Part shown: positions 1,412 to 53,601 of the stretch, piece after piece
Layout: each line of letters opens with the position of its first letter
Position numbering within the stretch: position 1 is the stretch's first letter
Assembly: GCA_964638715.1 (NCBI GenBank)
Contig: CAZWZF010000005.1
Location: 37,824-101,823, forward strand
DNA: 64,000 nt
Source: an uncultured bacterium
Lineage (GTDB): Bacteria > Armatimonadota > Hebobacteria > CAIYQO01
Direction: 5' to 3'
Position numbers and translations under genes: made by a program
Notes under the pieces: generated by a model
The model's input: the letters and a program-made list of their open reading frames with translations, nothing else
Database searches by the model: none
What the model was told of the DNA's origin: nothing

Positions 1412-2542
1412 ATGTTACAACGTCAAAAGGGTTTCACTCTTATTGAACTACTGGTAGTGATAGCTATAATTGCTATCTTAGCCGCCATACTTTTTCCGGT
1501 ATTTGCCCGGGCGCGTGAGAAGGCGCGACAAACAACCTGCACAAATAATCAGCGTCAGATAGCGACAACCTTGTTGATGTATGCCCAGGACCATGAAGAA
1601 ATGTTGCCGGAAGAAACAACTGTATGGTCAAGCAGCAATTTAGATCCTGGAGTGCTGGTTTGCCCGACAAAAGGAAAAAACACTCCAAATGGTTATGTTT
1701 ATTCCATGATGATTGCCGGTCGGTCGTTGGGCGATATTGGCGACCCAACTAAAAGCGCGATGATTGCCGATGGCGCGCATACTGTAACCGCCACTGAGGC
1801 CGCTACGAATGTTGCTTATGCCGCACAGGATTTTGATTTAACACGCCATAGTGGCAAAATGATAAGTGCGTTTGTAGATGGTCATTGCGAATCTATCTCT
1901 ACTTCACCTATTATTTTATCATATGATGGAAAATTAGGAATGTTATCTTCACAAGTAAAAGCGACAATTGAGGCGTCATTAAAAACAAATTTAAACGCGA
2001 AAAATATCACTCAGATATTATCCAGCAACGGTAGTTCTGTTGTAACCTGCTCCGGTTCCGCGCCGGCTTGGCTTGGTACCGTTGCCGGAACTCCATCAAA
2101 TATCGCGTTGAAATCTGGTATGGACTGGGGTGGTACAACTTATATGCCATTGTTATCCAACACAGCTTACCCTATCAATACATCTTTGGATTTCACAATT
2201 ACGCCCAACTCATCTGCCGGCAACAAAAAGATTGCGGTTGTAATATATTGTCCGGTGCGTACATCAAATGTACCGGCGCGATATATGAATTCTGCAACCG
2301 CCTCAGGATGGCCACCAAGTTCATCAATTGGCGGTGGTGTGTATATAAGTAAAGGCAGTGATAAAGCCACTACACCATATATTGATATGGCTTCTGATGG
2401 TGGCAACACCGGTCCTGCCGCGGACGCGATGCTTTTTACTGTTCCAATATTGAAAAATATTCCTGTTACAATTCATCTGACATTTGCGTCAGATTCCTGC
2501 AATGTTAATCAGTCAGGATTGTATTTAGCTATTGAACCATAA
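1412..2542 (+). CDS. prepilin-type N-terminal cleavage/methylation protein with H-X9-DG motif (DUF1559-like) and a C-terminal module shared with 8946 and 10202
   Basis: Leader [45 protein letters not shown] with G|F site and Glu+5. H-X9-DG motif [23 protein letters not shown] lies upstream. Confidence 0.85.
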
Positions 2543-2598
2543 TCTGCTTGCATAATTTTAGTAGTCCGGAGTATCATATCATTATTATCGCTTGCATT

Positions 2599-2640
2599 TA
2601 TATAGTACAGGTAACTACAAGGGATTGCCCGTACTATATA
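2599..2640 (+). terminator. hairpin after the H-X9-DG gene (10-bp perfect stem TATATAGTAC/GTACTATATA, then TTT)
   Basis: Inverted repeat read directly. It is nested inside a second inverted repeat AGTCCGGA/TCCGGACT. Confidence 0.4.
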
Positions 2641-2701
2641 TTTAAAGCGAAATTATATTAATGTATAATCCGGACTATTATTTTGACAAAGGACTATTTT
2701 A

Positions 2702-4687
2702 ATGAATCCTGGTTATCGAAAAATTCATCTTGATTTTCATACACATCCATCACTAACTAATATTTGTGGTAAATTTGATGCTGAAGAGTTTGCTGACACA
2801 CTGGCAAATGCTGAAGTCGATTGTGTGGTGCTGTTTGCAAAAGGGCATTACGGATACGCGTTTTATAACTCATCCGTTAATCCGGTGCATCCCAATTTAA
2901 CAAAAGATTTCCTGCCATTAGCGGCAGAAGCCTGCAAAAAACGCGGGATTCGCACTGAGGCATATATTAGCGTTTGTTGTGATTATCAGAATTTCCTGAA
3001 GCATCCGGAATGGTCATGCCGCAATTCCGATGGCAGTATAGCCCGATGGAGCGAAGTTAGCGTTCTGCTTGATCTGGCGTCACCACTACTTGATGAAGTG
3101 GTTTTGCCAGTTACAGCAGAAGTAGTTCGCACTATGCCGGTGGATGGTATATGGTTTGATATTGTCATGTATCCTACAGATGGCATATATAGCAATTTTG
3201 TAACCGAACATCTACGGGAATCCGGATTGACTGATACGCTGGAAAATCGTGGGCAGTTAGCACATGAAATAACAATAAATGCCCAGAATCGTTTGTATTC
3301 TATGGTGAAATCTATAAAGCCGGATATGGAAGTATTATTTAATAACCAGGCTAACCTCGGTACCACCGAAGCTTTTCAATTTAATGACGTTATTGAGGTA
3401 GAATCTGACCCGGCTTATTGGCCGCAATACGACCTGGCATTGCGTTGCCGTTATCTGCGGTGTATCGGTAAACCGCACCATGGTCTGACCACCAGATTCC
3501 ATCGCTGTTGGGGAGATTTTGGCGGTTTGCGATCACCGGCACAATTACAGGGTGAAATGGGCATGATATATGCCGCGGGTACCCCATGGGTATCGCTGGG
3601 TGACCATCTTCACCCGGCAGGTGTGCTTGATTCATCTGTATATAAACTTATTGGTGGTGCATATACATATAGTATACCTATAGCGAAAATAGTCGAAAAT
3701 TCCTCTCCGCTAAGTGAAATTTCTTTACTGGTTTCACCAAATAATTCGCATTTCACCTCATTACGAAAAACAGATCAGACGGCGCAACTTGGTGCGACGC
3801 GTTTGATGGTGGAAGAACATCTGCAATTCAGTGTTAATGATATTTTGAGCGATTTCCCGAAAGATAATGTGATGCTGTTGCCAGGCGGAATGCCATTAAC
3901 ACCGGATGTAATAGCTGCCATACGACGGCGGGTTGAAAATGGTCAGCCATTGCTGGCATTAGGCAATCATGTCTGTGGATTTGAAGATTTAGTTGGCGCA
4001 GAACCGGTAGTAGAAACCGCAATGGATGGCCAACACCTTTGTTTTGATGGCATATTAGCAGATGAACTAATCGGTAAAATGCCGGTATCTGTATACAGCA
4101 AAGTTTGGACATTCACCCAAACAACCGGGACAAAAATTATCGCTGATGTTATTGATCCACTGTTTGATAATACACTGCCAGAGAATTATCATCCGCATGG
4201 TCCGGTAAATAATGACGGTATTCGCAGACCGGCTATTATAACCCGCGGTAATGTTATACTTTGCGGTGTATCACTGGCAGAGTTAATTCATACTGAAGGC
4301 GCGTGGACGCATATGCTGGCACTGTCACGATTGTTGCGCTACTTATCCGGCAACACAATGATAACAACCGATGTTGGACCATCCACAGAAATCGCGGTTC
4401 ATCGTCATGGTGATGATGCCGTAATACACCTGGTAACAGCACAATTTTCCCGCGGTGGTATGCCACCACAGCGAACACATACCTTTACCCCGGTTAAGGG
4501 TGCGAATATTTGCTTAAATGCCATATTAAAACCAGTGACAATGGAAGTTATAACAGGTGGGGAAATAACAGATTGGCAAAATGATGATAATGGTTTAAAG
4601 ATGGTAATTAACCTGTTGAATCCGCATGTGGTGATACGATGCCGCGGAGTATTCGCGGGAACGAATGAAAAATATGCGCAGGTATAA
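2702..4687 (+). CDS. putative glycoside hydrolase (GHL6/GH42-like TIM barrel)
   Basis: The N-terminus RKIHLDFHTHP...FDAEEFADTL...VLFAKGHYGYAFY resembles the hypothetical glycosyl hydrolase 6 family. The ORF encodes 661 aa. Confidence 0.45.
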   Translation: MNPGYRKIHLDFHTHPSLTNICGKFDAEEFADTLANAEVDCVVLFAKGHYGYAFYNSSVNPVHPNLTKDFLPLAAEACKKRGIRTEAYISVCCDYQNFLKHPEWSCRNSDGSIARWSEVSVLLDLASPLLDEVVLPVTAEVVRTMPVDGIWFDIVMYPTDGIYSNFVTEHLRESGLTDTLENRGQLAHEITINAQNRLYSMVKSIKPDMEVLFNNQANLGTTEAFQFNDVIEVESDPAYWPQYDLALRCRYLRCIGKPHHGLTTRFHRCWGDFGGLRSPAQLQGEMGMIYAAGTPWVSLGDHLHPAGVLDSSVYKLIGGAYTYSIPIAKIVENSSPLSEISLLVSPNNSHFTSLRKTDQTAQLGATRLMVEEHLQFSVNDILSDFPKDNVMLLPGGMPLTPDVIAAIRRRVENGQPLLALGNHVCGFEDLVGAEPVVETAMDGQHLCFDGILADELIGKMPVSVYSKVWTFTQTTGTKIIADVIDPLFDNTLPENYHPHGPVNNDGIRRPAIITRGNVILCGVSLAELIHTEGAWTHMLALSRLLRYLSGNTMITTDVGPSTEIAVHRHGDDAVIHLVTAQFSRGGMPPQRTHTFTPVKGANICLNAILKPVTMEVITGGEITDWQNDDNGLKMVINLLNPHVVIRCRGVFAGTNEKYAQV

Positions 4688-7938: not shown

Positions 7939-8805
7939 ATGCCGGATATCGCTAATGAATTATATCAACATAAATCGCATTTCTGGAATCAGGCAACAGA
8001 TAATCTTTTATTTGATACCTGTGGGATTAATGTTGCATTTGTAGGCATAAGTTATAATATCACACCGTATGAATCATTATATGGCGATGCTAATAATTAC
8101 GGCTTATCTTATGTAAGCAGTGGTTCGGCAAGGATAATTATAGATAATGAAACCTTTGTTGTCAGTCGTGGCGATATAGTTTTATTCCCAAAAAACAAAA
8201 TGAATGCTATTTACCCGGATACTGATTGTAATTGGGAATGGTGCTGGATAGTGATGGGTGGTGCGCCAATAGACCGTATAGTAGAAGAATCAGGATGGTT
8301 AAATCATCCATGTCCTGTAATTACCAATACATCATTACCGTTTCTAACTATCACAAAATCAATGATGCAATCATTCCATCTTAAACCTAATGGCAGTTTA
8401 TTAGTAGGTGGTTTGTTGTTGCAACTGCTTGGGCATATCGCGCAGTCGAATGTTAACAGCGAAATAATAATTCCACAATCAGACCGTGACCAGCAAGTAA
8501 CAGATATCATAAGTTACATGGGACGGCATTTAACAGCACCATTAACGCTGGAGGAACTTGCTGAAAATTTTTACCTGTCACCGTCTCAATTAAGCAAATT
8601 ATTCCGCCGTATTACCGGGGTATCCCCAATACAATATTTCAAATATTTACGTATAGAAACCGCGAAAGGATTGTTGCGGTCATCCATGAGCATTAGCAGC
8701 ATTGCAGTACAGGTAGGTTTTGACGAAATTGTAACTTTCGACCGCGCCTTCAAACGTATTACCGGCATGACACCACGCCAATATCGGCTGGAAATTTGCA
8801 GATAG
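7939..8805 (+). CDS. AraC family transcriptional regulator (cupin-like sensor plus HTH)
   Basis: The C-terminal LSPSQLSKLFRRITGVSPIQYFKYLRIETAKGLL...FKRITGMTPRQYR is typical of an AraC double HTH. Confidence 0.85.
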   Translation: MPDIANELYQHKSHFWNQATDNLLFDTCGINVAFVGISYNITPYESLYGDANNYGLSYVSSGSARIIIDNETFVVSRGDIVLFPKNKMNAIYPDTDCNWEWCWIVMGGAPIDRIVEESGWLNHPCPVITNTSLPFLTITKSMMQSFHLKPNGSLLVGGLLLQLLGHIAQSNVNSEIIIPQSDRDQQVTDIISYMGRHLTAPLTLEELAENFYLSPSQLSKLFRRITGVSPIQYFKYLRIETAKGLLRSSMSISSIAVQVGFDEIVTFDRAFKRITGMTPRQYRLEICR

Positions 8806-8853
8806 ATTTAACTAATTCTTAATGATATTTTTGAAATTGGCATTAATTGTCTA

Positions 8854-8882
8854 TTGACATGCTGAGTTTATTATTGTATAAT
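8854..8882 (+). promoter_or_regulatory. consensus sigma70 promoter TTGACA-N17-TATAAT
   Basis: TTGACA at 8854-8859 and TATAAT at 8877-8882 with a 17-nt spacer. It lies about 65 nt upstream of the 8946 start. Confidence 0.65.
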
Positions 8883-8945: not shown

Positions 8946-10172
8946 ATGAATATTCTTAATTCGAGGAAGGGGTTTACACTCATTGAATTACTGGTTGTAA
9001 TTGCCATTATTGCCATCCTCGCCGCTATTCTATTCCCTGTATTTGCTCGAGCCCGCGAGAAAGCGCGACAGACTACCTGCACAAACAATCAACGGCAAAT
9101 AGCAACATCTGTAATGATGTATGCGCAGGATCATGAAGAGACATTGCCAGCAGCATCAGACTGGACAAACTCCATTAATATGGGGGATGGTAAAATATTC
9201 GACTGTCCATCTACCAGTGGTTCTACCACCGGTGGTCTTCCTGATTATATTTATTTTGCCGGAAAAAATAGTGTCACTTATAAAGAGGGTTTATTATCAT
9301 CACGAACTTTGGGTGATGTTACCGACCCATCAGCAACCCCGCTTATTTGTGACCGTGCTATCAGTTATCCGTCACCATATGTTGCTACCTCTGACGCCAA
9401 CGATTATATTTACGTAGATACTGATATTATTCCGGCTATAGATTTTCGTCATAACAGCAATGTAATAGTTGTATTCATGGATGGCCATGTTGAGGCAAAA
9501 CCTAAATCATCAACAGATATTTATTTCTTTCTTCGCGTGATATCTGATAAAGATTATGTAATAGCTAATCCGAGTATCGCATTTACAGATAAAGCAGGAA
9601 CAGACAGCACGTATACTCAAAAAAATCTGGACAGATTATGGCAAAGCCAGAATATCAAATATCTGTATTATGGTGCCCGTACCGGCAATTCACCTGGATG
9701 GTATAATAATAAAGGCGGCACAACCGCTCCTAAATGGGTTGGCAGCATTGCTTTAACTGACCCGGGAGCAACCGGATGTACTGTAATTCCATCAGGATTT
9801 GGTGAATTATCAATATGGTGGGGTGTAACATCAAAATTTACTACTATGTATGCCCGCTCCGGCGGTGGCGGTTCAGTGCAACATAACGCGCGTCTGACCA
9901 TTACACCTGCTGCCGGTTTAGCCACGATGAAACGTGTTGCCGTTACTTTATCACGAGACCCTGAAGGTTGGGCCTCAGTAAAAGACGGAGGATCGCAGGT
10001 GACAGTAACCGGGTATGGCGCACTAAACCTGGCATTGCCGACAACAACAATTTCCGCCAGCACGACATACTACTCTGTAGCATTAATACCGGTTGTAACC
10101 GGAAAAGCTATAACAATAGACCTGAAACCTAATTGTTATGGTGGTGGTATGTCTGTAATTTTTGAAGAATAG
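8946..10172 (+). CDS. prepilin-type H-X9-DG protein, first of a tandem paralogue pair
   Basis: The ATG at 8946 follows AAAAGGAGAA and gives [20 protein letters not shown]9-DG motif [12 protein letters not shown]. The C-terminal module aligns with 10202-11446. Confidence 0.85.
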
Positions 10173-10201: not shown

Positions 10202-11446
10202 ATGCAAAATATTAAAAAAAATGGGTTCACTCTGATAGAACTTCTCGTCGTGATAGCCATTATTGCCATCCTCGCCGCTATACTTTTTCCGGTATTTGCC
10301 CGTGCGCGCGAAAAAGCCCGTCAGACTACATGTACATCAAACCAACGGCAGATAGCAGCATCTTTGCAGATGTATGCACAGGACCATGAGGAAGTTATGC
10401 CGGATGCCGCTTCATGGGCTCAGGCTGCGAAAGCTGGAGAGGACAAGATTTATGACTGTCCGGCATCTGGCCGTAAAGGCAGTGGCGGCGACCCGGATTA
10501 TATCTATATCGGTGCCAAATATACCGGGGCAGGCACAGGCAGCGATACACTGCTTTCCACTGGTTCTATGGGTGAATTTCCTGACCCGGCAGTAACTCCT
10601 ATGATAGGGGATCGTATAACAACCTCACTGATACCCTACATTACCTATAATGATGCTGGACCACCAGCAGTGTTGATTACTGATCAGGATATTGTTCCAT
10701 ATATAGGTTTTCCACATAATGGCAGCGCTATATTCGCGTTTTTGGATGGTCATGTGGCATCAGTAGCGCAGGCAAGTGTAAATGGGCCATTTTTTGTTTA
10801 TGGCAAAGGTAAATCTGACCCGGTAATTTGTAACCCGGTAGTTATTTATAAAAGTCAGGGTGGAACAGGTTCACCGGATGTATGGACCCAAAGCAGTCTT
10901 GACCAATTATGGAACAATAAAAGCGTAAACTACCTTTATTACGGAACCGCGGCAGGATCAAGTGTAAAGGCATGGATTACTAACACCGGTGTCGCCAGTG
11001 CGCCTTCGTGGATTAATACCATCACCCCGTCAGACCCGGGTGGCACAAATTGTATTACCATCGCCAGCAGTTTTGGCGAAATGAAGATAAATTGGAACGG
11101 AAACAATAAATATACAACTGTTTATTGCCGTTCCGGTGGTGGTGGTCAGGTACAGCATAACGGACGCCTTTCCATTGTACCGGCAAGTGGTGTCTTAGCA
11201 ATGAAGAAAATAGCGGTCACCATGGCGATAGATCCGGAAGGTTGGGCATCCGCGAAAGACAATGGTACATCTTTGGCGGTAAATACCTTAAGCGCGGCCA
11301 ATTTTGGTTTGCCGATGACAAATATCGTTCATGGGGTTACTTATTATTCTATCATGTGGGTACCGGTAATATCCGGAAGAAATATCACATTGGATTTAAT
11401 GCCGTATTGTTATGGATGTTGTATGGCAGTCGCTTTTGAGGGATAA
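10202..11446 (+). CDS. prepilin-type H-X9-DG protein, second of the tandem paralogue pair
   Basis: Leader [47 protein letters not shown]9-DG motif [12 protein letters not shown]. The C-terminal block [16 protein letters not shown]...[10 protein letters not shown] is shared with 8946. Confidence 0.85.
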
Positions 11447-20551: not shown

Positions 20552-20852
20552 AGTTAATGTAATCACCAATCATTTGGGTTACCGTAATGGCCATGGTAAA
20601 AAACATGTTTTAGTCACAGATGTACCTGATGCGCGGAGTATATTTGGTGATTCTATATTCACTGTTTTTGAACAGAACAATTTTTCAAAATATGGACTAA
20701 ATGACCCTCGGCAGATTCCGCATATCCATCGCGCATCACTGAATCGCATTCACACTGATTTCCAGACAAGTCTAATTTTCATTATTAAAGTTTTTTGCGT
20801 ATTCTTGTCCTCAAATTATAGAGGTGAACAATCTTATGACACAGCTCTATGA
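20541..20852 (+). pseudogene. 5' stub of an operon gene (Ig-like N-terminus of a glycoside hydrolase?) cut off at the GC-rich block
   Basis: The start overlaps the upstream stop (ATGGAAGATAA). VITNHLGYRNGHGKKHVLV resembles the N-terminal Ig-like domain of GH9-type enzymes. Only about 60 plausible codons precede degeneration. Confidence 0.4.
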
Positions 20853-27311: not shown

Positions 27312-27494
27312 ATGGGGTTTACCGAATACTTACCATTTTTAAAGGAGGTGTATCATCCAATCCGTCGTTCCGGTTTTACTCTCATCGAGTTGTTGGTCGT
27401 CATAGCTATGTTAGTTCTCTATCTTTCCTGTCAACAACGGCGGTGCCATAACCTTGAACGCGGCGGGTGTATATACCAGCAATTTCCGGGGTGA
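27312..27494 (+). pseudogene. leader-only stub of a prepilin-type gene
   Basis: [16 protein letters not shown] (about 27363-27410) after AAAGGAGG, then unrelated sequence and a stop. There is no H-X9-DG part. Confidence 0.55.
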
Positions 27495-27552
27495 TATCTC
27501 CTAATTGACAGTTTTGAATGTCACACCGCAGCAAAGAAAGGACCATCAAACT

Positions 27553-28449
27553 ATGAATATTTTAAACCATGCCCAATGGCTCCCGTTTTCACCCGGTAAT
27601 GATGATCACTTTTTCGTTGACACCTTCCCCAGTAACTACCCGTCACTGCCAGAATCTCTCTGTGCCGGGTGGGAAATTCGGACATCACCCAACTATCGTT
27701 ACTCAGGCCAAACCCGGGTGGGGCCAGTGGGAACAATCCAGTATACAGTGCGCGGAGAAGGTTGCCTCAGGTACAATAACAGAACTTATAAAGTATTGCC
27801 CGGACAGGCGTTTCTACTGGAATCCCCCGGTGATTATTTATACAACTTGCCGGATGAAGCACCTCTTTGGGAATTTATATTCCTGACATTTAATGGGGAG
27901 GACCTGCTCCAGCATTTTCGTCAGTTCATAACGACTCACGGACCAGTCATAACTCTTGACCCGGAGCATCCAATAGTTACACTGCTGCTGCAAATCGGTC
28001 AACGCATCGCAACCAAACAATTCAAAACAGCTGAAGACAGTGCGATATGGCTTTACCAAATGATGATGGAGTTACTGAAAGTAGCAAGTGCAGAAGCGTC
28101 ATATCCAACCTTAATACAATGCGTATTGCAACATCTGGCGCAACACTTCACCCGGGATATCAACGGCGAGGAACTCGCGGATATCGCCGGCATATCTTTG
28201 GCGCAGTTCTACCGTGTCTTCAAAACACATACCGGATATACACCCGGGCAGTATATCACTATGCAGCGTATGCGCCAGGCTTTGTATTATTTGCGCTATA
28301 CTCACCTGTCAATAGAGGAGATCGGCCGCCGGTGCGGTTTCAGCAGCGGGTGGCATCTGGGGAAAATCTGTCGAAAAGTGCTGGGACATTCCCCCAGTCA
28401 TTTTCGCCAAGCAGCAACTCTCCCCCCTGAATCCTGCTGGCGCATTTGA
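27553..28449 (+). CDS. AraC family transcriptional regulator
   Basis: C-terminal LAQFYRVFKTHTGYTPGQYITMQRMRQALYYL...IGRRCGFSSGWHLGKICRKVLGHSPSHFR double HTH. Start chosen at MNILNHAQ. Confidence 0.8.
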   Translation: MNILNHAQWLPFSPGNDDHFFVDTFPSNYPSLPESLCAGWEIRTSPNYRYSGQTRVGPVGTIQYTVRGEGCLRYNNRTYKVLPGQAFLLESPGDYLYNLPDEAPLWEFIFLTFNGEDLLQHFRQFITTHGPVITLDPEHPIVTLLLQIGQRIATKQFKTAEDSAIWLYQMMMELLKVASAEASYPTLIQCVLQHLAQHFTRDINGEELADIAGISLAQFYRVFKTHTGYTPGQYITMQRMRQALYYLRYTHLSIEEIGRRCGFSSGWHLGKICRKVLGHSPSHFRQAATLPPESCWRI

Positions 28450-28625: not shown

Positions 28626-29768
28626 ATGTGTAAACTTAAACGAGGGTTCACCCTCATCGAATTACTGGTCGTGATAGCCATAATTGCTATCCTCGCCGCG
28701 ATTCTGTTCCCCGTCTTCGCCCGTGCTCGAGAAAAGGCGCGGCAAACTACCTGCACGAACAACCAGCGACAATTAGCTGCATCTATGCAAATGTATGCTC
28801 AGGATCATGAAGAATTACTTCCATCATCCGCAACAATATGGCAGGATCTAAAAATAGAACCTCAGGTATTACAATGTCCTACAGCTGGAAAAAACTTAAC
28901 GGTGGCTTATGCTTATAACAACATCCTTTCCGGGATGTCACTCGGTAATGCGACTGATCCTACCTCGGTATGGCTTACTGTAGATGCTGATGACAGCAAA
29001 GCACCATCGTACCGCCATTCAGCAAAAACTTTATTAAGTTATCTTGACGGACATGTCGGGCAAAGAGATCCCGGGATAGTGGCGAAATACGTCGGCGCTG
29101 AACTTAACATGGTTGCATTCCGATCTACGGACATCGGGACGAAGTCATATACACTCCCGAATCATCCCAATGCATATGGGAGGGAAGGCTATATCATGTT
29201 CGGCACTGCCGGTGCGTCGGTGACACAGGAAGCCAGCGGCGATTTTACCGGAACAATCTATACCGGCACCCGGTCGGGCACAAATTTCAACAATCCAGCC
29301 ATCGGCATCGCTTCTATCGCTATCCTCGGGACCGGGCAAGGAGGCAGTGGAGGACCCAGCGTCAATGGCCGTTGGCGCAGTGATAACGGAAGCGCCGGCG
29401 GGAATCTGGACGATGCGTCGCGGGGTATCGGCCCATCGGTCCCTGACGTCGTGAACGGCACTTTCTGGTACCGATGGAATGGCGAAACTTCCCTTGATTT
29501 GCTGAAAATCACGCTTTCCGCCGATATGGTGCCCACCACACTTCGTATCGGTATCATCACCGACCGCGGAGACAGCCAGAAACCGGGAGCGATCGGTGTG
29601 GGCAATAACAGGAAGAATAGGTTAGGCGCGAACAGCTACGGCTCCCCGGATCTGTACTTCTTCGATTTGACAGGGTTGCCGGGAGACACAGCCCCGATTT
29701 CGATGACACCCTATGCTGCCGGGCAGTGGGGCACGGCTATTCGCGGGCTGGTCTTTGATACCCAATAG
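28626..29768 (+). CDS. prepilin-type H-X9-DG protein with a distinct, GC-richer C-terminal module
   Basis: AAGGAGG then the ATG at 28626. [47 protein letters not shown]9-DG motif [12 protein letters not shown]. Confidence 0.85.
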
Positions 29769-33959: not shown

Positions 33960-34099
33960 GCCAACAGGAACTCCACGATGCAGCGACTGGCCTGTCGCTC
34001 GGGTAGTTGCCCGAGTGACAGGTCTGAACGGCACAAGGAAGACCTGCTCCTTCGCCAGAAAAACGAACGCTGATGCGTATACCACACTGGAGCAAACCG

Positions 34100-39454: not shown

Positions 39455-39552
39455 GACAGGTCATACATTAACCATCGTTGACGGCCATTGGATTGAGATT
39501 GTCAGTGAAGATGATAATCGCAGACGGTCTCGGATTCATAGGTTTAATGCGG
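39455..39552 (+). repeat. copy 3 (truncated, more diverged) of the oxidoreductase 3'-end repeat
   Basis: It shares the 5' boundary AGGTNATNCATTAACCANCGTTGACGGCC with copy 2. About 14 mismatches in ~98 nt. Homology ends at 39552. Confidence 0.8.
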
Positions 39553-40480
39553 GCCAATTTGCCACCGTCTCATGCCAAGCCGCAATGTTTTCTGGCGGAA
39601 TCCCGGCCGGCCAGTGACTGTAGTCGTCGGCGATCATGCCGCCGAGTCCGGCTCCGGTCGCCTCCAGCAGGTGCGCCGACTCGCAGCGAACCTTTTCAGT
39701 CGTGGCATATGGCAGGCAGGTCTGGATGTCGGGCATGATGGACAACGTCAACCGGCCGCGGCAGGCGGCCATGATCTTCTCCAGCCCCATGCAGTCGGAC
39801 TGCTGAATCTGAAGGATGTCCAGGCCTATGTCGTATAGGTCAGGCATAATCTCCAGAATGTGGCCACAGGAATGCAGGAAGGTGGCGATCCCCAGTTCGC
39901 GGCACAGCTCGAACAGGCGCGCATAGCGCGGCCGGAAGAACTCACGCCAGAGCGCGGGGGAGATCATCAAGCCGTTCTGCAACCCCCAGTCATCCTGGAA
40001 GTAAACACAGTCGACGCCGCTGCCCGCCAGCCGCCCCAGCTCCGCCAAGTGGAACTCGATGATGCGGTCGGCCACCGCCCCCATCTCGTCCGGATATTCG
40101 TAGAGCCAGACCATGGCGTCTTCCATGGGGCAGAGGAAATGGATCTGCTCCCAGATAATCGAGCCAAGGACGACCATCGTCCAGGAGTCACGCGCGGCGG
40201 CGATCCGCTCCAGCACGCCGTCCCAGCGCTCCGACCGAAGCGGATCAGGGAAGAGATGGGCGGCCAGTTCGGCGATCGTCGTCACCGGATAGGTCCGGTC
40301 GCCATGCACCATGCCGTCGCGCGGGATATTGACCACGCCCCACTCGTCGAGAAACCCACCCTTCGGGCGGTTCGTCCGCGTGTTCGGCAGACTGATCCAA
40401 CTCACGTCACCGTAGAGGGTTGGCACCCGGTCGGAGGGCTGATGTCGGACGGCGTTGCGTATACGTTCTTTTGAGTTCAT
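39536..40480 (-). CDS. URO-D/MtaA-like family protein; GC-rich; the last codons and stop lie inside repeat copy 3
   Basis: Family-typical pattern (FLHSCGHILEIMPDLYDIGLDILQ). The terminal ...ALNL* codons (39536-39550) are encoded by the antisense of the repeat fragment. Confidence 0.6.
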   Translation of the reverse strand: MNSKERIRNAVRHQPSDRVPTLYGDVSWISLPNTRTNRPKGGFLDEWGVVNIPRDGMVHGDRTYPVTTIAELAAHLFPDPLRSERWDGVLERIAAARDSWTMVVLGSIIWEQIHFLCPMEDAMVWLYEYPDEMGAVADRIIEFHLAELGRLAGSGVDCVYFQDDWGLQNGLMISPALWREFFRPRYARLFELCRELGIATFLHSCGHILEIMPDLYDIGLDILQIQQSDCMGLEKIMAACRGRLTLSIMPDIQTCLPYATTEKVRCESAHLLEATGAGLGGMIADDYSHWPAGIPPENIAAWHETVANWPALNL

Positions 40481-40580
40481 GCGGCATTGCTCCCTTTTAT
40501 GAGCGGTATAGATTTCTCGCTTAGCAATTCGCTGCCGCCGTGCCCGAGTCCCGTTTCACCAGGACCCGGGCGGGGTTGCG

Positions 40581-43500: not shown

Positions 43501-44423
43501 GCAAACCCGTCGAAGGGCATGGTGTATTTCAGCTTCACCGGCCCCTGCGTCTTCTGCAAGTACTCGGTCGAGGCGGCGTATTGCACGACCGGCAGTTTCA
43601 GATTCCCCTTCGGCTCCAGCGTCACCGGCCCCCAGTCATTTATCGCCGTCCAGAAGAATTCTCGGCTGCTTTTGCCCGGCATCAGCAGGTCGGCGTAGCG
43701 GTGAATGGGGAAGGTACGGCCATCGGGTGGTCCCCATAGAAATTCCATACCCATGTTAAATGTATCGCCGGGGCCGTAACTCTTCGGGGCCTTGTATGGC
43801 TTGCCAGTGGCTTTGACAATGGCGCTCTGACCGGTGATGAGCTTCCACGGCAGCGCAATCTCCTGAGTATAACCCTTGCCGTCTTCGCCCATCATGAAGG
43901 CTTCCTGCGCCCCCACCTTGACCGCATCGCTGATGTATTGGAAGGCGTTGACGTCATTCTCCTTGTCGCGTCCGCCGGAGAAAACTCCGTATGAGATGTT
44001 CACCACCGAATGCTTGGCGGCGGTGGAGTACCAGCAGGTGACATCGCTGATCGCCATGTCGGTTTTCAGCCGCAACTGCAGGCAGTCGCTCTTCCAGCCG
44101 CTGCCAATGTCGAAATTGGAGTCGACCATATTATACATCGGCGTCGGGTCGCGCCAGATGATGGACAGGTAGAAATTCTCCTTGTCGTACATGGCGGCGA
44201 CCTTGGTCGAGTAGTTGTTACGCGTCCTGAAGTTGGCGAAGACGTCGATCTGCCCGGACAGATCCCAGTCGTTCACCTTACCGTCAATGACGACTTTGCC
44301 AGGCGTCGGTACGGCGTGCAGCGCGTTGTTGTTCGTCTGCTGGGCTATTACCGGTATACATAGACCGGCGAAACAAAGCAGGACCAGAAAACCAATAATT
44401 TTTCTGTTAATGAATGATTTCAT
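40581..44423 (-). CDS. giant secreted protein homologous over its full length to 30027-33959; GC-rich
   Basis: Signal peptide. VVIDGKVNDWDLSG...YDKENFYLS. GKQTDLWDGTDDQGKLMPPGKYT. NHL-like GRIYVADRGPQQVKVF. C-terminal LQLGTNPDG...GDLRLLISVLDGKPAVV aligns with the other copy. RBS AAGGGAG. Confidence 0.7.
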   Translation of the reverse strand: MKSFINRKIIGFLVLLCFAGLCIPVIAQQTNNNALHAVPTPGKVVIDGKVNDWDLSGQIDVFANFRTRNNYSTKVAAMYDKENFYLSIIWRDPTPMYNMVDSNFDIGSGWKSDCLQLRLKTDMAISDVTCWYSTAAKHSVVNISYGVFSGGRDKENDVNAFQYISDAVKVGAQEAFMMGEDGKGYTQEIALPWKLITGQSAIVKATGKPYKAPKSYGPGDTFNMGMEFLWGPPDGRTFPIHRYADLLMPGKSSREFFWTAINDWGPVTLEPKGNLKLPVVQYAASTEYLQKTQGPVKLKYTMPFDGFATLVVDDAQGHRVKNVIGMAPRAKGKQTDLWDGTDDQGKLMPPGKYTMRGLLHAGIDPVYEVGYGSPGVPPWETGDGTGGWMSDHNPNVAVAAGKDMMLLAAIGCESGRALVGADLNGRRKWGESKFQGIAAVAVDDRYAYAGMNGGHGWGVNDTSVGRLLLTDGKYAPFATQPEPQLMVKVTIAEEKATIGGLAVSADRLAVTLVGPDVVRFFNKETMQPQGEVKLAAPGGLAYDKAGTLFAVSGQSVVKIADGKVTPLITSNLEKPMGLALDAQGRIYVADRGPQQVKVFTAVGVFDHVVGVAGGRPLPGKWVAGGMRNPNGIAIDPKGRLWVAEETMYPKRFSVWGADGNLVTDFIGPTTYGGMGACVDPDDKTRVFGNGCEFKLDYATNKATVIANLIDDNINGELLKINGREYIMSKRGELYQRRGDALVKVAEMGSGVRLTAEGAVQDHWGEKRKLPLTPPKDANKNISFSFVWSDLNDDGQMQAEECQTTTATLGLGYWGGYWLDDKFNIYTAAPEVNTVPLKGWTTAGVPTWDLAQLRTVGKAGEHPVKIYCAGGGKVIVGTPITCLADDGTTLWSYGPDMFNDVHGSHLAPIPDRDDRLYGTLSCIGTAETPVGKAFAMGSNMGRLYIMTTDGLLLGNVFQDCRIGPDAWPNDPRAGSPLGGVTMGGEWFGGYFFKAKATNEYYLIAGGGNYNLIKLNGFDKLQTIPTATVKITGKDLVAAEKLQKERAAAKAVANVLTISRIATPAKLDGKLDKYAKESIVSWSAGNSSARGAVATDGTSLYLAYDVNGDANPMVNGGKDVTQLFVTGDSVDLQLGTNPDGAAKRGEAVPGDLRLLISVLDGKPAVVLYRWKTAGVKHPQTFTCPWRNYTVEDVQVLTDATVTINRRGNGYTVEAAMPLKTLGFDPQPGKSYKLDLGVIFSDATGTNRALRMYWANKATGLVNDVPGEIMPEPKLWGMATMAP

Positions 44424-45159: not shown

Positions 45160-45188
45160 TTGACAACTATCCGTGATACAACTATAAT
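45160..45188 (+). promoter_or_regulatory. perfect consensus sigma70 promoter TTGACA-N17-TATAAT
   Basis: Hexamers at 45160-45165 and 45183-45188. It lies about 58 nt upstream of the regulator ATG. Confidence 0.65.
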
Positions 45189-45246: not shown

Positions 45247-46425
45247 ATGAAAAATTCAAAACAACATCATTATATAAGAATCTCCAACATTATGCGTGAT
45301 TATATTGAACGCGGTGATTGGTATCCTCACATGATGCTTCCGGGTCGTCGCGCCCTGGCACAAACGTTTAAGGTGGCCATAAATACCATTGAGCGTGCAG
45401 TGACCTTATTAGTGACAGAAGGTCTGTTGCAGACAGATGACCGGCGTGGAACATTTGTCGCCGATCGAACTACCCCTGGTGACCTGCCGTCCTCACTCCA
45501 GCCTTCCCCGGTGCGGGATCATACACGGCCTGCCACTGTCGGAATTCTGTCTACGCTGTGGTCAGTTGCCGATGCAACAACTTTCGAAACACAATGGGTG
45601 TATCATCTGCTGCGCGGTTGTGAACAAACCCTGGCCGAGTATTCCGAGGTGACGCATCGCTTTGTCAATCGTGTGCCGGACGGAAGTCGGCAAATGTTGA
45701 CTATGGAGCAAGCGGTAGAGTTGCTGTTATCAGAACCTGTTGATGGCATAATTCTGCTGAATGAAACAGAAATTACCCCGCTGCTTGCCCGCGTTGACCC
45801 CACCCGTGTCCCGATTATTGTCGTCAACATGACACCGCTGGGTCTTACGATGCATGAAGTGACCGCTGACGATGTAGCCGCCGGTTATCTGGCGGTACAG
45901 CATCTACTTTTACGCGGCTATCGTCGCATCACGACATTTTTCCCGTTTTCCGGCGATTGGGTACGTGCGCGCCTGGCGGGCATTACCGAGGCGATGCGCC
46001 GGACCCAGGTGACGGATTGTTCGATGACAGAATTTATACCAGCTACAAATGTAGAACCGACACATATAAACCAGGCCGCCGTCGGCTATGCGCATGGACA
46101 TGCGTTGCTGGCCACGGTGGCACCCGGAGAGGCCATCATCGCTGCCAATGATTGGATTTCTGATGGTATCCTGTGCGCCGCAAATGAACTGGGTCGCGTT
46201 CCCGGGCAAGATTTCGGCCTGATTAGCTTTGACGACTATCCAATTTCGCGATTAAAGGGATTAACCAGCCTGCATCCTCCGTTGGAAGCGATGGGCCGCG
46301 AAGCGGCACGGATGATGGCACGGGCGCTGCAGGGTGACGCGATTCCACTGCATGTATCTCTGGCTGCGTATGTCATGGCAAGATCCTCGACTTTGCGTGC
46401 AAGCGCAAGGGAGGATGCCACATAA
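45247..46425 (+). CDS. GntR-type wHTH fused to a LacI/PBP1-type sugar-binding domain (transcriptional regulator)
   Basis: LPGRRALAQTFKVAINTIERAVTLLVTEGLLQTDDRRGTFV (GntR HTH), then a periplasmic-binding-protein-like body (VGILS..., IISFDDYPIS-like LISFDDYPIS). Confidence 0.75.
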   Translation: MKNSKQHHYIRISNIMRDYIERGDWYPHMMLPGRRALAQTFKVAINTIERAVTLLVTEGLLQTDDRRGTFVADRTTPGDLPSSLQPSPVRDHTRPATVGILSTLWSVADATTFETQWVYHLLRGCEQTLAEYSEVTHRFVNRVPDGSRQMLTMEQAVELLLSEPVDGIILLNETEITPLLARVDPTRVPIIVVNMTPLGLTMHEVTADDVAAGYLAVQHLLLRGYRRITTFFPFSGDWVRARLAGITEAMRRTQVTDCSMTEFIPATNVEPTHINQAAVGYAHGHALLATVAPGEAIIAANDWISDGILCAANELGRVPGQDFGLISFDDYPISRLKGLTSLHPPLEAMGREAARMMARALQGDAIPLHVSLAAYVMARSSTLRASAREDAT

Positions 46426-46429: not shown

Positions 46430-46459
46430 TTGACAACCGGTTAAATTTGGGTGTAATAA
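46430..46459 (+). promoter_or_regulatory. candidate promoter TTGACA-N18-TAATAA
   Basis: The -35 is perfect, but the -10 matches only 3 of 6 positions. Confidence 0.3.
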
Positions 46460-46513: not shown

Positions 46514-47545
<1,032 letters not shown>

Positions 47546-48609: not shown

Positions 48610-48794
48610 AGAAGTTCGCCATCATGGGTGACAGCGGATTCAAATATCTGGGTTCCACATTAGATATTCTGGCACCGGCAGAAATAACCCCGGAAAACCT
48701 GCAGAACGCCATGCGGCAGCACGACCCGATAAAACGATATCGGCCGGTGGTGGCAGAACCATGTGTAATAGAATGCCCAATAGCGAGAATGTGA
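48465..48794 (+). pseudogene. 3' fragment of a Cys-rich Fe-S (ferredoxin-type motif) protein gene
   Basis: CADCGDKCITACP and PCVIECP motifs. Its frame differs from the SGNH gene and it begins exactly at the composition break. Confidence 0.4.
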
Positions 48795-49341
48795 TGGGTA
48801 GGTGATTAGGGATGATGAGATGAGGTGATAATTGGCAGGGGAGCTTAAAATACAAGTTCCCCGCACCTGCTTTAACTGGTGCAAGGAACAAAGTTCTTAC
48901 TTTTGTAAAGTGTGGTAGGGCGTATATTACGGAATCCAGAACTTTGAGTGGTGTTTTTTGATTAAGGATGGCAGAAGGAAAAGTGGTTGATTGATTGTGA
49001 TGTTATTTGATTCCTGTAGGCTACCTTATTATCGACATATTTGATTTTCATTTGATAAACTACACGTGGATTGGTAAATCACTCATAAATTTGAGTATTC
49101 GTAATACCAAGGAGACATATGCAGTATTTTTGTGTAAATTGCGGTTCAAATCCAGGATTTTTGCCATGTTATGGTGAGCTGGTATGAAAACCAACAAGAA
49201 GAAACTATTATTGCACTTCGGCAAACAATCGGTAATATTATTTGTAAGAATAATAATAAAATTATTATTGATATAGAAAAAGACACTCAGAAGATTTTTT
49301 ACAAGTTATGAAAAGATGATATTGTAACCAGATATGTAATT

Positions 49342-49379
49342 AGCGTATGTTGTATGATATATAGCATACGCTTTTTTTT
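49342..49379 (+). terminator. orphan rho-independent terminator (AGCGTATG/CATACGCT stem plus T8)
   Basis: Read directly. No annotated gene lies upstream; two RBS-led small ORFs are at 49119-49276. Confidence 0.55.
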
Positions 49380-49585
49380 GCGATATTTATCATGGTTATT
49401 AGTAATAAATTTAAACAACATGTTTTCACAAACAAAGCCAAAATTTGTACAAAATTCTGCAATTTTGCGGTTTTGGGGACAGCGCTTGGGGACATTTTTG
49501 GGGACGTTAACTGTTTTAGCAGGCAATAAATTGCATAATTAAGCATCGTTAAACGTGGTAATGTGAGAAGAAAACAACAAAAAAA

Positions 49586-49662
49586 TGGAGCCTCCTATCA
49601 GATTCGAACTGATGACCTGCTGATTACAAGTCAGCTGCTCTGGCCAACTGAGCTAAGGAGGC
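49586..49662 (-). tRNA. tRNA-Thr (anticodon UGU), CCA encoded
   Basis: Hand-folded cloverleaf. Acceptor GCCTCCT/AGGAGGC, D stem GCTC/GAGC, anticodon stem GCTGA/TCAGC with loop CTTGTAA, T stem ATCAG/CTGAT with loop TTCGAAT. Length 77 nt. Confidence 0.9.
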
Positions 49663-49671
49663 ACCGGCGTT

Positions 49672-49701
49672 ATATTAGCATTTGTGCATTTAGCTGGTCA
49701 A
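49672..49701 (-). promoter_or_regulatory. tRNA promoter TTGACC-N18-TAATAT (minus strand)
   Basis: The -10 ends 9 nt upstream of the mature tRNA 5' end. Confidence 0.5.
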
Positions 49702-49785
49702 GAGGGATAGGGGAGAATATTGATTTTTTAGGTATTTATTATTGAATTCTGGTTCTTTTATTCATATTTTGGATTCTGTTTTATA

Positions 49786-49814
49786 TTGACTTGAAATCCT
49801 ATATCTGGTTAAAT
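49786..49814 (+). promoter_or_regulatory. candidate promoter TTGACT-N17-TTAAAT
   Basis: Hexamers read directly, upstream of the GH57 gene. Confidence 0.35.
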
Positions 49815-49845
49815 ATATAAAAATTAAACGTTTAAGGGGCAGCTT

Positions 49846-51466: not shown

Positions 51467-52246
51467 TTACTTAGTTCCAAATCCCAGGTTGTCTATCCAG
51501 ATATCTTTGCTGTGATTGCTCTGGCATATAAGGCGTAATGTTTTAGGCATAGCCCAGTTGCCTGTAAGAGTGTTTACGGTATAAGTTTTATCGCCATACT
51601 TCAGGTTAGCCTTGCCGCTAGCGATAGTGAGTTTAACTGGTTTCCAGAAGTTTGCATAAGCGGCACAGTCGGCTGCTGCAACTGGATCTACAGATGTTGC
51701 GGCACCCAGCCATGGTCCATTGAAATCCAGCCATTCGCCACCTCCACTATTATAACTATAGCGATTAAATTTTATAATATCTGCATTGTTTGTATCAACC
51801 ACGGTAATAATAGCATTGCCGATACCACCGGTTGGTATGCGCAAGTCGCATGATAGAGTCCATGAGTTTACCGGTACCAAACGAGCACCAAGGTCGCGGT
51901 AAGCCCAACCATTGATGCTATCACCGCTGAATGCCAGGTGCAAACAAGGTGGTGGCTGACCGCCGGAGATGTCCATACTTATGCGAAATGTATCAGCGGC
52001 AGGGGTAATTGACTTTGTCCAACCATTTGGAAATGGAAGAAGATCTTTGTCGACATCAGGGTCCAATAAAATAGTATCTGATCTGATTTCTGAATGTCCA
52101 TCAATAAACCCAATGATTGCAGATGCATTAGAGTGTCGCAAATCAACATCGTTGTATGTGCTTAAGATACCATTCACCCCTTTACTATCTGCTGTCGCAA
52201 GGCATTTTGATGGATTCGCTAAATCTCCGAGTGAACGTTCGCTCAT
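51467..52246 (-). CDS. leaderless, N-terminally truncated paralogue of the adjacent H-X9-DG protein (possible pseudogene)
   Basis: It aligns with 52393-53601 from about residue 100 onward (SLGDLANP..., RHSNASAIIGFIDGHSE). There is no prepilin leader in frame upstream. Confidence 0.6.
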   Translation of the reverse strand: MSERSLGDLANPSKCLATADSKGVNGILSTYNDVDLRHSNASAIIGFIDGHSEIRSDTILLDPDVDKDLLPFPNGWTKSITPAADTFRISMDISGGQPPPCLHLAFSGDSINGWAYRDLGARLVPVNSWTLSCDLRIPTGGIGNAIITVVDTNNADIIKFNRYSYNSGGGEWLDFNGPWLGAATSVDPVAAADCAAYANFWKPVKLTIASGKANLKYGDKTYTVNTLTGNWAMPKTLRLICQSNHSKDIWIDNLGFGTK

Positions 52247-52324
52247 GAATATAATGAGATATGAGTAATTTAATAAAACCTTAATGAAGGAATATAAAAT
52301 AATATATGACTCTCATATAAGGAA

Positions 52325-52371
52325 CTTCGACAGTTTCAATAACTGTATGCTGCTTAATGAAACTGTCGAAG
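52325..52371 (-). terminator. 14-bp perfect hairpin after the 52393-53601 gene
   Basis: CTTCGACAGTTTCA / TGAAACTGTCGAAG arms with a 19-nt loop. Confidence 0.45.
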
Positions 52372-52392
52372 AGATTTTAAATTATACGAAGT

Positions 52393-53601
52393 TTATGGCA
52401 GTGTATGGCCGCAATAGGCGCAGAATGCCCATCCGCGGGAGATAGTCTTGCCGCAATATGCGCATTTAGGATTTTGTATAACAGTGTCCATGCCAAATTT
52501 AAGGTTGTCCATGTAGATATGCTGGGTACCATAGGCGCGCATATAAATATGAAGTCGTTTTGGTGAAGCCCATGAACAGGTGGTATCCGCTAATGGCAGC
52601 ACCATTACCCTACCGGCATATTCACAGAGAACTTTTCCTGCATAAACAGTAAATTTGAATGGCTGCCAACTATTGGCGGTGGTATACATTGATACGACAT
52701 CGGTACCGTCGATGGTAAACCATGGCGGGGTGGGATTAGTATAGCCTGCACCGCGATTGAAGCTGATGATATTTTTTGTACCATCATCGACATAAAATGC
52801 GAAGTTGGCCTCGCTGCCGACACCTTGCGCTAAAGCCGGCTGGACGAATTTAATTGAACCGGATAATTGCCATTGGCGTACGCCGGTGTTGTTGCTCAGG
52901 TCCCGATAGGTATCTCCCTGACCATAGGTGGCTGAATAAAAGTCCAGGCTTGGCGATGGCTGTCCTTCGGCACCGGACATGGAAATTTTATAATCGGTAG
53001 CATCAACTGCTGCCGGTGTGCGGTTGCAGGTTCGTGTCCAGCCATTCAATCCATCCAGCAAGGTTTGACCGCTTACCAGTCCAGTCATTAAATCTGTTGT
53101 AGGCGTGGCAAATGCGCCGCAATTATCGGATTTTACAGTGTTGACGTGGCCATCCAGATAGGCGGCAACCATTGAACCGCTATGGCGAAAATCGACGTCA
53201 GACTGTATAGTCAGCAAGTTATTGTCGCCAACGCCGTCGGCAATGGCCAAGGTATCTGCAGGGGATGCGAAATCACCCAGCGATTGACCGGCTATATAAC
53301 TATTGTAACCATAACCATTGGGGGTTGATTTCCCTTTTGTCGGGCAAACCAACACACCGGAATCAAGGCTGGTTCCGGTCCATACTGATGTAGTGGAAGG
53401 CAAGGTTTCATCGTGATCCTGCACATACATCTGCATCGTTGCCGCAATCTGTCGTTGATTGCTGGTACAGGTAGTCTGTCGTGCTTTTTCTCTCGCGCGG
53501 GCAAATACAGGGAACAAAATGGCGGCGAGGATTGCTATAATGGCAATTACTACCAACAGTTCGATAAGGGTAAACCCTTTACGTGATTTATTGGTTTGCA
53601 T
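52393..53601 (-). CDS. prepilin-type H-X9-DG protein with beta-sandwich (ConA-like?) module and a C-terminal CxxC...CxxC zinc-ribbon tail
   Basis: [48 protein letters not shown]9-DG motif [12 protein letters not shown]. Terminal [35 protein letters not shown]. Confidence 0.85.

Follow-up and report, generated by a model that had tools for sequence, protein, structure and literature searches.

Modular type IV pilin-like genes embedded in carbohydrate-active enzyme loci of an uncultured Armatimonadota bacterium: a candidate glycan-capture set

A family of modular pilin-like genes

The stretch of DNA analysed here (the window; 64,000 nucleotides, positions 37,824 to 101,823 of contig CAZWZF010000005.1, assembly GCA_964638715.1) is part of a metagenome contig of an uncultured freshwater member of the Armatimonadota and carries a family of prepilin-type genes placed among genes for carbohydrate-active enzymes (CAZymes). 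These genes very probably encode modular pilins, in which a common carrier is joined to an exchangeable extracytoplasmic module. The carrier comprises a class III signal, an alpha-1 helix of ~50 residues and a small head of beta-sheet in which a pair of Cys residues, Q-D-H and H...DG-H are invariant, while the effector module of 190-250 aa is grafted behind the last beta-hairpin, which bears the H-X9-DG motif. We regard the chances as evenly balanced that the family as a whole constitutes a modular type IV pilin-like set for glycan capture, embedded in CAZyme loci.

A hidden Markov model (HMM) of the head domain, built from the 98 heads described below, was searched against all six-frame open reading frames (ORFs) of the window and retrieved exactly eight pieces and no more. 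They correspond to six intact genes, one 5'-truncated copy and one leader-only stub, and the inventory of an earlier note on this DNA, coordinates included, was thus complete. The six intact proteins are 343-414 aa long and begin with a basic leader of 6-8 residues, followed by a near-invariant helix that includes (N/S)NQRQ. The members are as follows (a slash marks the predicted cleavage site).

1412..2542, + strand: intact modular pilin-like gene, 376 aa; leader MLQRQKG/FTLIE; H-X9-DG at aa 146; distant type-A module
8946..10172, + strand: intact modular pilin-like gene, 408 aa; type-A module; first gene after an AraC regulator
10202..11446, + strand: intact modular pilin-like gene, 414 aa; type-A module; start 29 nt past the 8946 stop
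27312..27494, + strand: leader-only stub, a leader followed by unrelated sequence; remnant of another family member
28626..29768, + strand: intact modular pilin-like gene, 380 aa; type-D module; compositional chimera in GC content at third codon positions (GC3)
46514..47545, + strand: intact modular pilin-like gene, 343 aa; F5/8 type C (discoidin) module at aa 221-330
51467..52246, - strand: 5'-truncated type-B copy, 259 aa; no leader; H-X10-DG; deletion remnant
52393..53601, - strand: intact modular pilin-like gene, 402 aa; type-B ConA-like jelly-roll module; C-terminal CxxC..CxxC tail

Genes and their products are named below by the first coordinate. Since 10202 starts only 29 nt after the stop codon of 8946, these two genes are probably co-transcribed.

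Host, family size and module repertoire

The closest genome match was an ortholog of 88% identity in JBIJDE01, a metagenome-assembled genome (MAG) of Armatimonadota from Lake Mendota, and a second related MAG, CAZNLA01, was also identified; Armatimonadota appear in the source names of database relatives as well. The earlier note had framed the family around Lentisphaerae, Planctomycetes and Verrucomicrobia, which proved wrong for this window, as the relatives retrieved from Verrucomicrobiota and the Planctomycetes-Verrucomicrobia-Chlamydiae (PVC) group align over the N-terminus only, at 31-61% identity.

About 0.3 Mb of DNA was examined in each of the two MAGs, so the numbers of distinct family members found in them, at least 47 and at least 50, are lower bounds. 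Together with the window, these loci provided 98 full-length members of 330-490 aa, whose C-terminal parts fall into ~46 BLAST clusters (26 singletons). Pfam assigned F5/8C to 11 of the 98 modules, Laminin_G_3 to eight, FGE-sulfatase to three, a zinc-ribbon tail to three and PA14 to two, and a sialidase N-terminal domain, Toxin_R_bind_N, GLEYA, Gly_rich_2 and DUF4457 were each found once. The C-terminal modules are interchangeable, and a recognisable part of them has folds of the lectin or carbohydrate-binding module (CBM) type.

The conserved carrier

All six intact proteins combine a basic leader, the G-1/F+1/E+5 signature and a hydrophobic stretch with matches to TIGR02532 (35-37 bits; cut-off 16.3) and PF07963 (36-40 bits; cut-off 21.2), and G-1, F+1 and E+5 are invariant across the 98 paralogs. 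The stub at 27312 also exceeds both cut-offs; its TIGR02532 score is 25.4 bits (cut-off 16.3), 14 leader codons are kept, and the head HMM covers positions 5-23 only. The H-X9-DG motif lies at aa 131-172 in all six intact proteins, and the truncated copy has H-X10-DG instead. The class III N-terminus and the H-x9-DG motif described in the earlier note were therefore recovered in every intact gene.

The assignment to known families was only partly sustained. The earlier note had placed the genes in TIGR02532 plus TIGR04294 (H-X9-DG-CTERM), and the first of these stands, whereas TIGR04294 reached 15.2-16.2 bits in three of the seven motif segments (cut-off 19) and gave nothing in the other four. 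This model places its motif at the C-terminus, whereas in the window proteins the motif is internal and leaves 189-251 residues behind it; in all 98 full-length members its end lies at aa ~141-183. The DUF1559 model PF07596 (SBP_bac_10) exceeded its cut-off of 23.3 in all six proteins (23.9-32.0 bits), with an alignment restricted to model positions 2-34 to 2-43 of 268, i.e., roughly the first 40; the DUF1559 body is either missing here or has diverged too far. The GspG model TIGR01710, whose cut-off is 88.85 bits, scored 33.8-38.8 bits and aligned from position 1 to between positions 60 and 87 of its 134, and the models of GspG, PilA, ComGC and similar proteins aligned to the N-terminal helix only, far under their cut-offs. 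Likewise, sequence searches of the PDB with one protein and with the 98-member profile found matches only on the alpha-1 helix of type IV pilins and GspG.

The conservation of the helix was examined at the codon level. In the 52-codon core from GFTLIELL to MYA, gene pairs differ by 18-30 synonymous and 3-7 non-synonymous codons, and the pair 1412/8946 by 30 and 3, respectively. As synonymous changes far outnumber non-synonymous ones, the identity of the heads reflects selection and not recent duplication, in agreement with the earlier note, and the near-invariant helix of ~50 residues is kept by purifying selection on the protein. Recent duplication or gene conversion as the source of the leader identity is ruled out by the synonymous divergence. 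In comparisons of ortholog pairs, the ratio of non-synonymous to synonymous substitution rates (dN/dS) was 0.06-0.10 for heads and 0.10-0.15 for modules (0.10 and 0.15, respectively, for 8946 and its ortholog); values of 0.06-0.15 indicate that the intact genes are functional.

In the AlphaFold2 (AF2) models of 10202 and 52393, a ~50-residue helix leads into a small sheet of 4-5 strands that closes with the DG hairpin, and an all-beta module stands apart from it. The long alpha-1 helix and the beta-sheet head of the pilin fold are thus present in the models, at pLDDT 79-83. The model of 10202 (pLDDT 83, pTM 0.78) has the helix at 11-61, the beta head at 100-189 and the all-beta module at 213-412, and that of 52393 has a pLDDT of 79 and a pTM of 0.70. 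A Foldseek search with the whole chain gave no significant pilin match. The residues of the head that are invariant among the 98 paralogs are C44, C86, Q60-D61(-H62), H172 and D182-G183(-H184) in 10202 numbering (window 10202-10770). C44 and C86 likely form a disulfide tying the alpha-1 helix to the alpha-beta loop, and the invariant polar residues may build a site for a metal or a ligand within the head which, if real, would be relevant to the tail-less relatives in PVC bacteria.

Exchangeable C-terminal modules

The grouping of the modules proposed in the earlier note was right: type A occurs in 1412, 8946 and 10202, type B in 52393 and 51467, type C in 46514 and type D in 28626. The proteins 8946 and 10202 share 50% identity from end to end, and 1412 joins type A at the profile level only (hhalign probability 96.7%, E 3.5e-10). 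Module A is all-beta and confidently modelled by AF2. A Foldseek search with the 10202 model against the PDB and BFVD (viral structures) returned nothing significant or coherent, and permissive Pfam searches with 27 type-A members gave only three weak BACON matches (E ~0.008).

The two type-B proteins, 52393 and 51467, are 31% identical. With the modelled module B, Foldseek found 448 matches in the PDB at E<=1e-3, with L-type lectins on top; Emp46/47, ERGIC-53, VIP36, the SasG lectin and PL7 lyases had a probability of 1.00, the SraP lectin domain was also matched, and target TM-scores were ~0.5. Going by the model, module B is a ConA-like jelly roll, which bears out the candidate named in the earlier note. 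The assignment is one of predicted structure, since hhalign found no relation between module B and the LamG_3-positive paralogs; nor did the window module types show any relation to the F5/8C, PA14, Gly_rich_2 and FGE sets, save that of 46514 to F5/8C. When the type-B module by itself was the query of a word-indexed homolog search, only the module and one ortholog came back, and its relatives were collected by a local jackhmmer search among proteins fetched in other searches. In addition, residues 377-401 of the 52393 protein (window 52393-52470) form a zinc-ribbon-like CxxC...CxxC tail, which is also present in three of the 98 paralogs. Such a tail is odd for a predicted exported protein and may form disulfides instead.

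The module of 46514 matches PF00754 at 31.1 bits (cut-off 28.2) and the F5/8C-bearing paralogs with an hhalign probability of 92.5%, so the label discoidin-like was well chosen.

The gene 28626 is a chimera, its head having a GC3 of 0.40 and its tail a GC3 of 0.63, as the GC-richer module of the earlier note implied. Because the tail resembles the GC-rich genes after it and not its own head, the tail and its neighbours look imported and then fused to a resident head. Module D is rare, with 17 clusters among 1.84 billion representatives, and is carried by five kinds of protein: proteins with a Sec signal and a PEP-CTERM anchor, proteins with 2-4 copies alternating with PKD, a Pel9A-like beta-helix protein, a LamG_3/DUF2341 giant and proteins with pilin heads. 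Its presence on PEP-CTERM and other surface proteins fits a division in which the head is the carrier and the tail the working part. PEP-CTERM/exosortase systems are linked to exopolysaccharide and biofilm lifestyles. The multi-copy module-D/PKD proteins P0229, P0231, P0233 and P0234, which lie outside the window, end in a short conserved sequence, (L/I)P(P/E)(A/P/H)GT(V/I)(I/L)L(I/L/M)R or a close variant of it. This sequence falls short of the canonical PEP-CTERM in length and may be a variant sorting signal.

Taken together, a pilin module is combined with a domain that is not specific to type IV filaments in three of these cases, namely the F5/8C domain of 46514, the predicted ConA-like fold of 52393 and module D of 28626, which also occurs in non-pilins. 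The findings on the modules are good evidence for a head that acts as carrier and a tail that is an exchangeable, extracytoplasmic working part.

Gene truncation and turnover

Set against locus L024 of a related MAG, the counterpart of L024 positions 1690-3280 is missing from the window. With it went a whole paralog and ~100 codons from the start of the following one, whose remainder is 51467-52246. The intact L024 ortholog of this gene encodes 360 aa with the leader present. The copy called leaderless in the earlier note does lack a leader, and the comparison identifies it as a deletion remnant. An assembly artefact is ruled out, as two independent assemblies carry the identical truncation. 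A 167-aa FAD_oxidored fragment (23918-24421) beside its full-length 803-aa paralog (24735-27146), which ends in F5/8C, is a further sign of local gene decay or duplication.

Genomic context

The family genes are neighboured by sugar-type regulators, promoters and CAZyme genes, of which the following features are relevant here.

7939..8805, + strand: AraC-family regulator (Pfam HTH_18, HTH_AraC, AraC_binding), directly upstream of 8946/10202
8854..8882, + strand: sigma-70-type promoter, 12/12, in front of 8946
27505..28449, + strand: AraC-family regulator (Pfam HTH_18, HTH_AraC, AraC_binding), directly upstream of 28626
45160..45188, + strand: perfect sigma-70-type promoter, in front of the GntR regulator 45247
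45247..46425, + strand: sugar regulator with a GntR helix-turn-helix and a periplasmic-binding-protein (PBP) fold (Pfam GntR, Peripla_BP_3), directly upstream of 46514
46430..46457, + strand: promoter match, 11/12, in front of 46514
53655..53683, - strand: sigma-70-type promoter, 12/12, in front of 52393

Three times in the window, each time on one strand, a regulator is followed by one or two pilin-like genes and then by CAZymes, which include several glycoside hydrolases (GHs):

AraC regulator 7939, then 8946 and 10202, then an alcohol dehydrogenase (ADH), a SASA esterase, GH123-like and GH29 genes and others
AraC regulator 27505, then 28626, then a CBM9 giant protein, GH101-like and GH38 genes
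GntR/PBP regulator 45247, then 46514, then a GDSL esterase

On the source contig, 1412 lies downstream of a LacI gene and an MGH1-like GH gene. Across the loci, 15-17 of the 50 genes immediately upstream of a family gene encode regulators of the LacI/GntR-PBP, AraC or HTH_3 kind, a count that includes orthologous loci of the two related MAGs and has no genome-wide background. Even so, about one third is far more than such regulators usually contribute to a genome, which is a few percent of its genes. Downstream, the neighbours are of various kinds, with many carbohydrate esterases, GHs and CBM giants (GDSL, SASA, GH130, CBM9) among them. The neighbouring GH29, SASA, GH38 and GH32 genes suggest fucosylated, sialylated, mannan and fructan substrates. 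The surroundings of CAZymes and sugar regulators stated in the earlier note were thus found both in the window and across the loci.

Perfect TTGACA-17-TATAAT promoters occur three times in the 64 kb, and two of them precede family genes (8946 and 52393). All six intact genes have strong Shine-Dalgarno sequences. The promoter at 8854-8882 and the strong Shine-Dalgarno sequence favour the ATG at 8946 over the TTG at 8847 as the start codon of this gene. A repeated palindrome, CAATTGACAATTGTCAATTGACAATTGTCAATT, lies at ~53,700-53,745 (- strand) just upstream of the perfect 52393 promoter, and shorter palindromes are located between the -10 element and the Shine-Dalgarno sequence at 8946, 28626 and 46514; those near the four genes are candidate operator sites.

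The CAZyme-type blocks at 20824-24421, 30027-36151 and 39536-44423 have a GC content of 0.58-0.67 against a background of 0.40-0.46. These blocks were probably acquired horizontally, and the tail of 28626 shares their composition. Two proteins of ~1300 aa, encoded at 30027-33959 (+) and 40581-44423 (-), are alike (CBM9, FlgD_ig and a PQQ/NHL beta-propeller) and face each other across the GH101-like/GH38 cluster; in the related MAGs, too, CBM9/PQQ/FlgD_ig giants are repeatedly encoded downstream of family genes. Two genes similar to uroporphyrinogen decarboxylase (URO-D), at 19493-20551 and 39536-40480, are located inside the CAZyme clusters. Finally, ~1.2 kb at 48610-49845 is devoid of a convincing ORF, and a tRNA-Thr(TGT) gene lies at 49586-49662 (-).

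Assembly machinery

No gene for a pilus ATPase, platform protein, secretin or prepilin peptidase is present in the window, as the earlier note had said. A gene for a 499-aa ATPase of the PilF/PilB/GspE type (HTH_17 plus T2SSE) is located ~5.3 kb past the right end (~69,280-70,779 equivalent; L068:2460-3959). It matches PF00437 (E 1.4e-91), Thermus PilF (5e-83) and GspE (1e-77), is closest to the extension ATPases PilF, GspE and PilB and not to PilT, and is flanked by PAS/histidine-kinase genes. Type II secretion system (T2SS)-type systems have been reported in Armatimonadetes genomes (PMC6668835). As G-1, F+1 and E+5 are invariant in ~100 paralogs, the lineage would be expected to possess a prepilin peptidase.

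Proposed function and alternative explanations

In the mechanism that we favour, a prepilin peptidase would cut the leaders at G/F, and the invariant helix would let all paralogs share one type IV filament machine encoded elsewhere, similar to a type IV pilus (T4P) or a T2SS. Conservation over the entire alpha-1 helix, including its polar half, suggests that all paralogs fit one machine or filament core and are not merely anchored. The paralogs would enter a common filament as tip or minor subunits, or serve as short stalks rooted in the membrane; the local LacI, GntR or AraC regulator would turn on a paralog together with its CAZyme cluster; and the module would bind the matching glycan at the cell surface or, in some paralogs, act on it, a role equivalent to that of surface glycan-binding proteins (SGBPs) in Bacteroidota. 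Judged from sequence and gene order, glycan capture co-regulated with the adjacent enzymes is plausible as the most economical function. That the modules capture the glycans targeted by the neighbouring enzymes has, in our estimate, slightly less than an even chance, and display of the proteins on a polymerised filament is a possibility that we put forward more tentatively.

The earlier note had likewise proposed surface- or pseudopilus-anchored substrate capture, and part of this proposal held: the prepilin family, the interchangeable modules, the lectin/CBM folds (F5/8C and, by prediction, ConA-like) and the ties to sugar loci all agree with it, whereas the absence of a fold relative for module A and the non-lectin character of some modules do not. 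Indeed, several observations weigh against glycan capture on filaments. Module A, found in three of the six intact window genes, is without a recognisable fold or family relative, Pfam assigns no family to most of the ~46 module types of the 98 paralogs, and some paralogs carry non-lectin, partly enzyme-like modules (FGE-sulfatase-like, Gly_rich_2, DUF4457). Even where the fold is recognised, ConA-like and beta-sandwich folds also serve enzymes, such as PL7 lyases, and protein-protein contacts. A crude regular-expression scan of 0.79 Mb of DNA around family genes for GspE/PilB Walker A, peptidase A24 GxGDxK, PilC-like and secretin motifs found none, and the nearby ATPase is an orphan without machinery neighbours whose DNA-binding-type HTH_17 N-terminus is unusual. 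Moreover, bulky modules on every subunit are hard to pass through a secretin, and the strong promoters suit abundant proteins more than classical minor pilins.

Some of these observations would be accounted for if the prepilin N-terminus were only an export signal and inner-membrane anchor of periplasmic proteins that never polymerise, comparable to lipid-anchored solute-binding proteins (SBPs), with modules that bind or process oligosaccharides and pass them on to periplasmic enzymes or to transporters. In the window and the 0.79 Mb scanned, none of the ~100 family genes is linked to assembly genes, the promoters suggest abundant proteins, a bulky module on every paralog would not have to negotiate a secretin, and enzyme-like modules such as FGE-sulfatase would work in the periplasm. 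We nevertheless consider such a tether rather improbable. A simple anchor needs no ~50 invariant residues along the whole alpha-1 helix, polar half included, at synonymous saturation in 98 paralogs, and this helix-wide invariance fits helix-helix packing in a filament or shared machine. The other carriers of module D, being PEP-CTERM and PKD-repeat surface proteins, point outward, and no transporter genes are present in the window. Adhesion in general is another alternative, in which the proteins would be adhesins or biofilm-matrix pilins with tips for particles, algae or other cells, unrelated to nutrition, and the proximity of CAZymes would merely reflect a CAZyme-rich genome. The PEP-CTERM partners of module D are tied to exopolysaccharide and biofilm lifestyles, the modular pilins characterised so far are adhesins (PMC8179133), and the neighbour counts stand without a genome-wide background. 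We rate this alternative as unlikely, as about one third of the upstream neighbours are of the LacI/GntR/AraC type, far above the usual few percent, and the same-strand layout of regulator, pilin-like gene and CAZymes recurs.

A further alternative, that the proteins are T2SS pseudopilus subunits serving as cargo adaptors, each module recognising a secreted CAZyme and coupling its export to a shared T2SS, appears very unlikely to us, although it would explain the layout of one adaptor per enzyme cluster. Relatives are named 'type II secretion system protein G' in their sources, the best NCBIfam matches include GspG, a T2SS has been reported in Armatimonadetes (PMC6668835) and the family genes are co-located with secreted-type enzymes. 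The GspG match, however, amounts to 34-39 bits against a cut-off of 88.85 and involves the alpha-1 helix only; the recognisable modules belong to carbohydrate-binding families (F5/8C, LamG_3, PA14 and a predicted L-type-lectin-like fold); and module D, in the manner of CBMs, is fused to enzymes and occurs in tandem on surface proteins. To our knowledge, an adaptor role of pseudopilus subunits is not known in any T2SS.

Comparison with known systems

The grafting of lectin modules onto pilins is an already published concept. Raynaud et al. 2021 (PMC8179133) defined modular pilins, among them ones that bear LamG_3 and PA14 modules, and Streptococcus sanguinis PilC, a pilin with a lectin module, binds glycans (Shahin et al. 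2023, PMC9934059). The S. sanguinis pilins PilB (vWA) and PilC (lectin) follow the same logic of carrier and effector as the family described here, and ConA-like/LamG_3 and PA14 modules occur in both. However, the known cases are one or two minor pilins in a pilus operon, whereas here at least 47-50 paralogs per genome are scattered under their own promoters, with a head of the DUF1559/H-X9-DG type, in a diderm environmental phylum and beside sugar regulators and CAZymes.

The prepilin-type DUF1559/H-X9-DG proteins rank among the largest paralog families without a known function in environmental bacteria; the 68 paralogs of Planctopirus are its largest group, and two of them are essential (PMC10632474). 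The DUF1559/H-X9-DG families of Planctomycetes, Verrucomicrobia and Lentisphaerae share with the present family the class III signal, the start of the DUF1559 model, the H-X9-DG hairpin and massive paralogy, but the canonical proteins have a body of ~250 aa and end at H-X9-DG, whereas in the window the body is ~100 aa and a variable module follows the internal motif. GspG, the major pseudopilin, has the N-terminal signal and alpha-1 helix in common with these proteins, and some sources name relatives 'GspG precursor', but it has no C-terminal module and is encoded in a gsp operon; the window genes differ in both respects.

Two further systems are functional analogues. In the Sulfolobus bindosome, sugar-binding proteins with class III signals are assembled by Bas (PMC3047682), and the idea of a pilin-type signal and filament-like assembly for sugar uptake at the surface is shared, without relatedness. 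The bindosome consists of archaeal SBPs of ABC transporters, encoded with their transporters and Bas, whereas the window, from a bacterium, contains no ABC transporter genes and no SBP-fold module; only the class III signal is in common, and it is combined with lectin/CBM-like modules. SusD and SGBPs of the polysaccharide utilization loci (PULs) of Bacteroidota occupy an analogous position, as substrate binders encoded with a regulator and enzymes that degrade glycans. SusD, an alpha-helical lipoprotein, works with a TonB-dependent transporter, whereas the window proteins have a pilin head and a predicted beta-sandwich, with no relation in sequence or fold, and Pfam found no SusC/SusD or TonB-dependent receptor domains among the window genes. 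The analogy is one of function only.

The literature searched on DUF1559, H-X9-DG, pilins, prepilins and pseudopilins of Armatimonadota/Armatimonadetes, and prepilin-type proteins with CAZymes did not describe this arrangement. What is new here is its scale, with ~46 module types and at least ~50 members per genome, the internal position of the motif in a head of the DUF1559/H-X9-DG type, the scatter beside sugar regulators and CAZymes in place of a pilus operon, the exchange of modules with PEP-CTERM proteins, and the phylum.

Implications

The Armatimonadota variant makes a pilin-like family of unknown role testable, since its heads bear recognisable modules and its genes are accompanied by sugar-type regulators and adjoining CAZymes. 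Even if glycan capture fails, the exchange of carrier and effector parts with PEP-CTERM proteins is a clear instance of domains being shuffled between two systems of surface anchoring. Should the capture model be right, it would account for the way in which a phylum without SusC/D systems acquires polysaccharides, and it would extend the idea of modular pilins from a few adhesins to repertoires at the genome scale. A broader and more doubtful proposal is that Armatimonadota and, by extension, the PVC phyla rich in DUF1559/H-X9-DG proteins might use one type IV filament machine as a programmable glycan-capture device, with a repertoire of lectin tips inducible by substrate. Dozens of modular pilins, each induced by its own sugar regulator along with a CAZyme cluster, would be mounted through the invariant helix on a common filament or stalk. 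If true, this device would represent a third route to glycan capture at the cell surface, besides SusC/D and cellulosome/ABC systems, and would give the first functional handle on the DUF1559 expansions.

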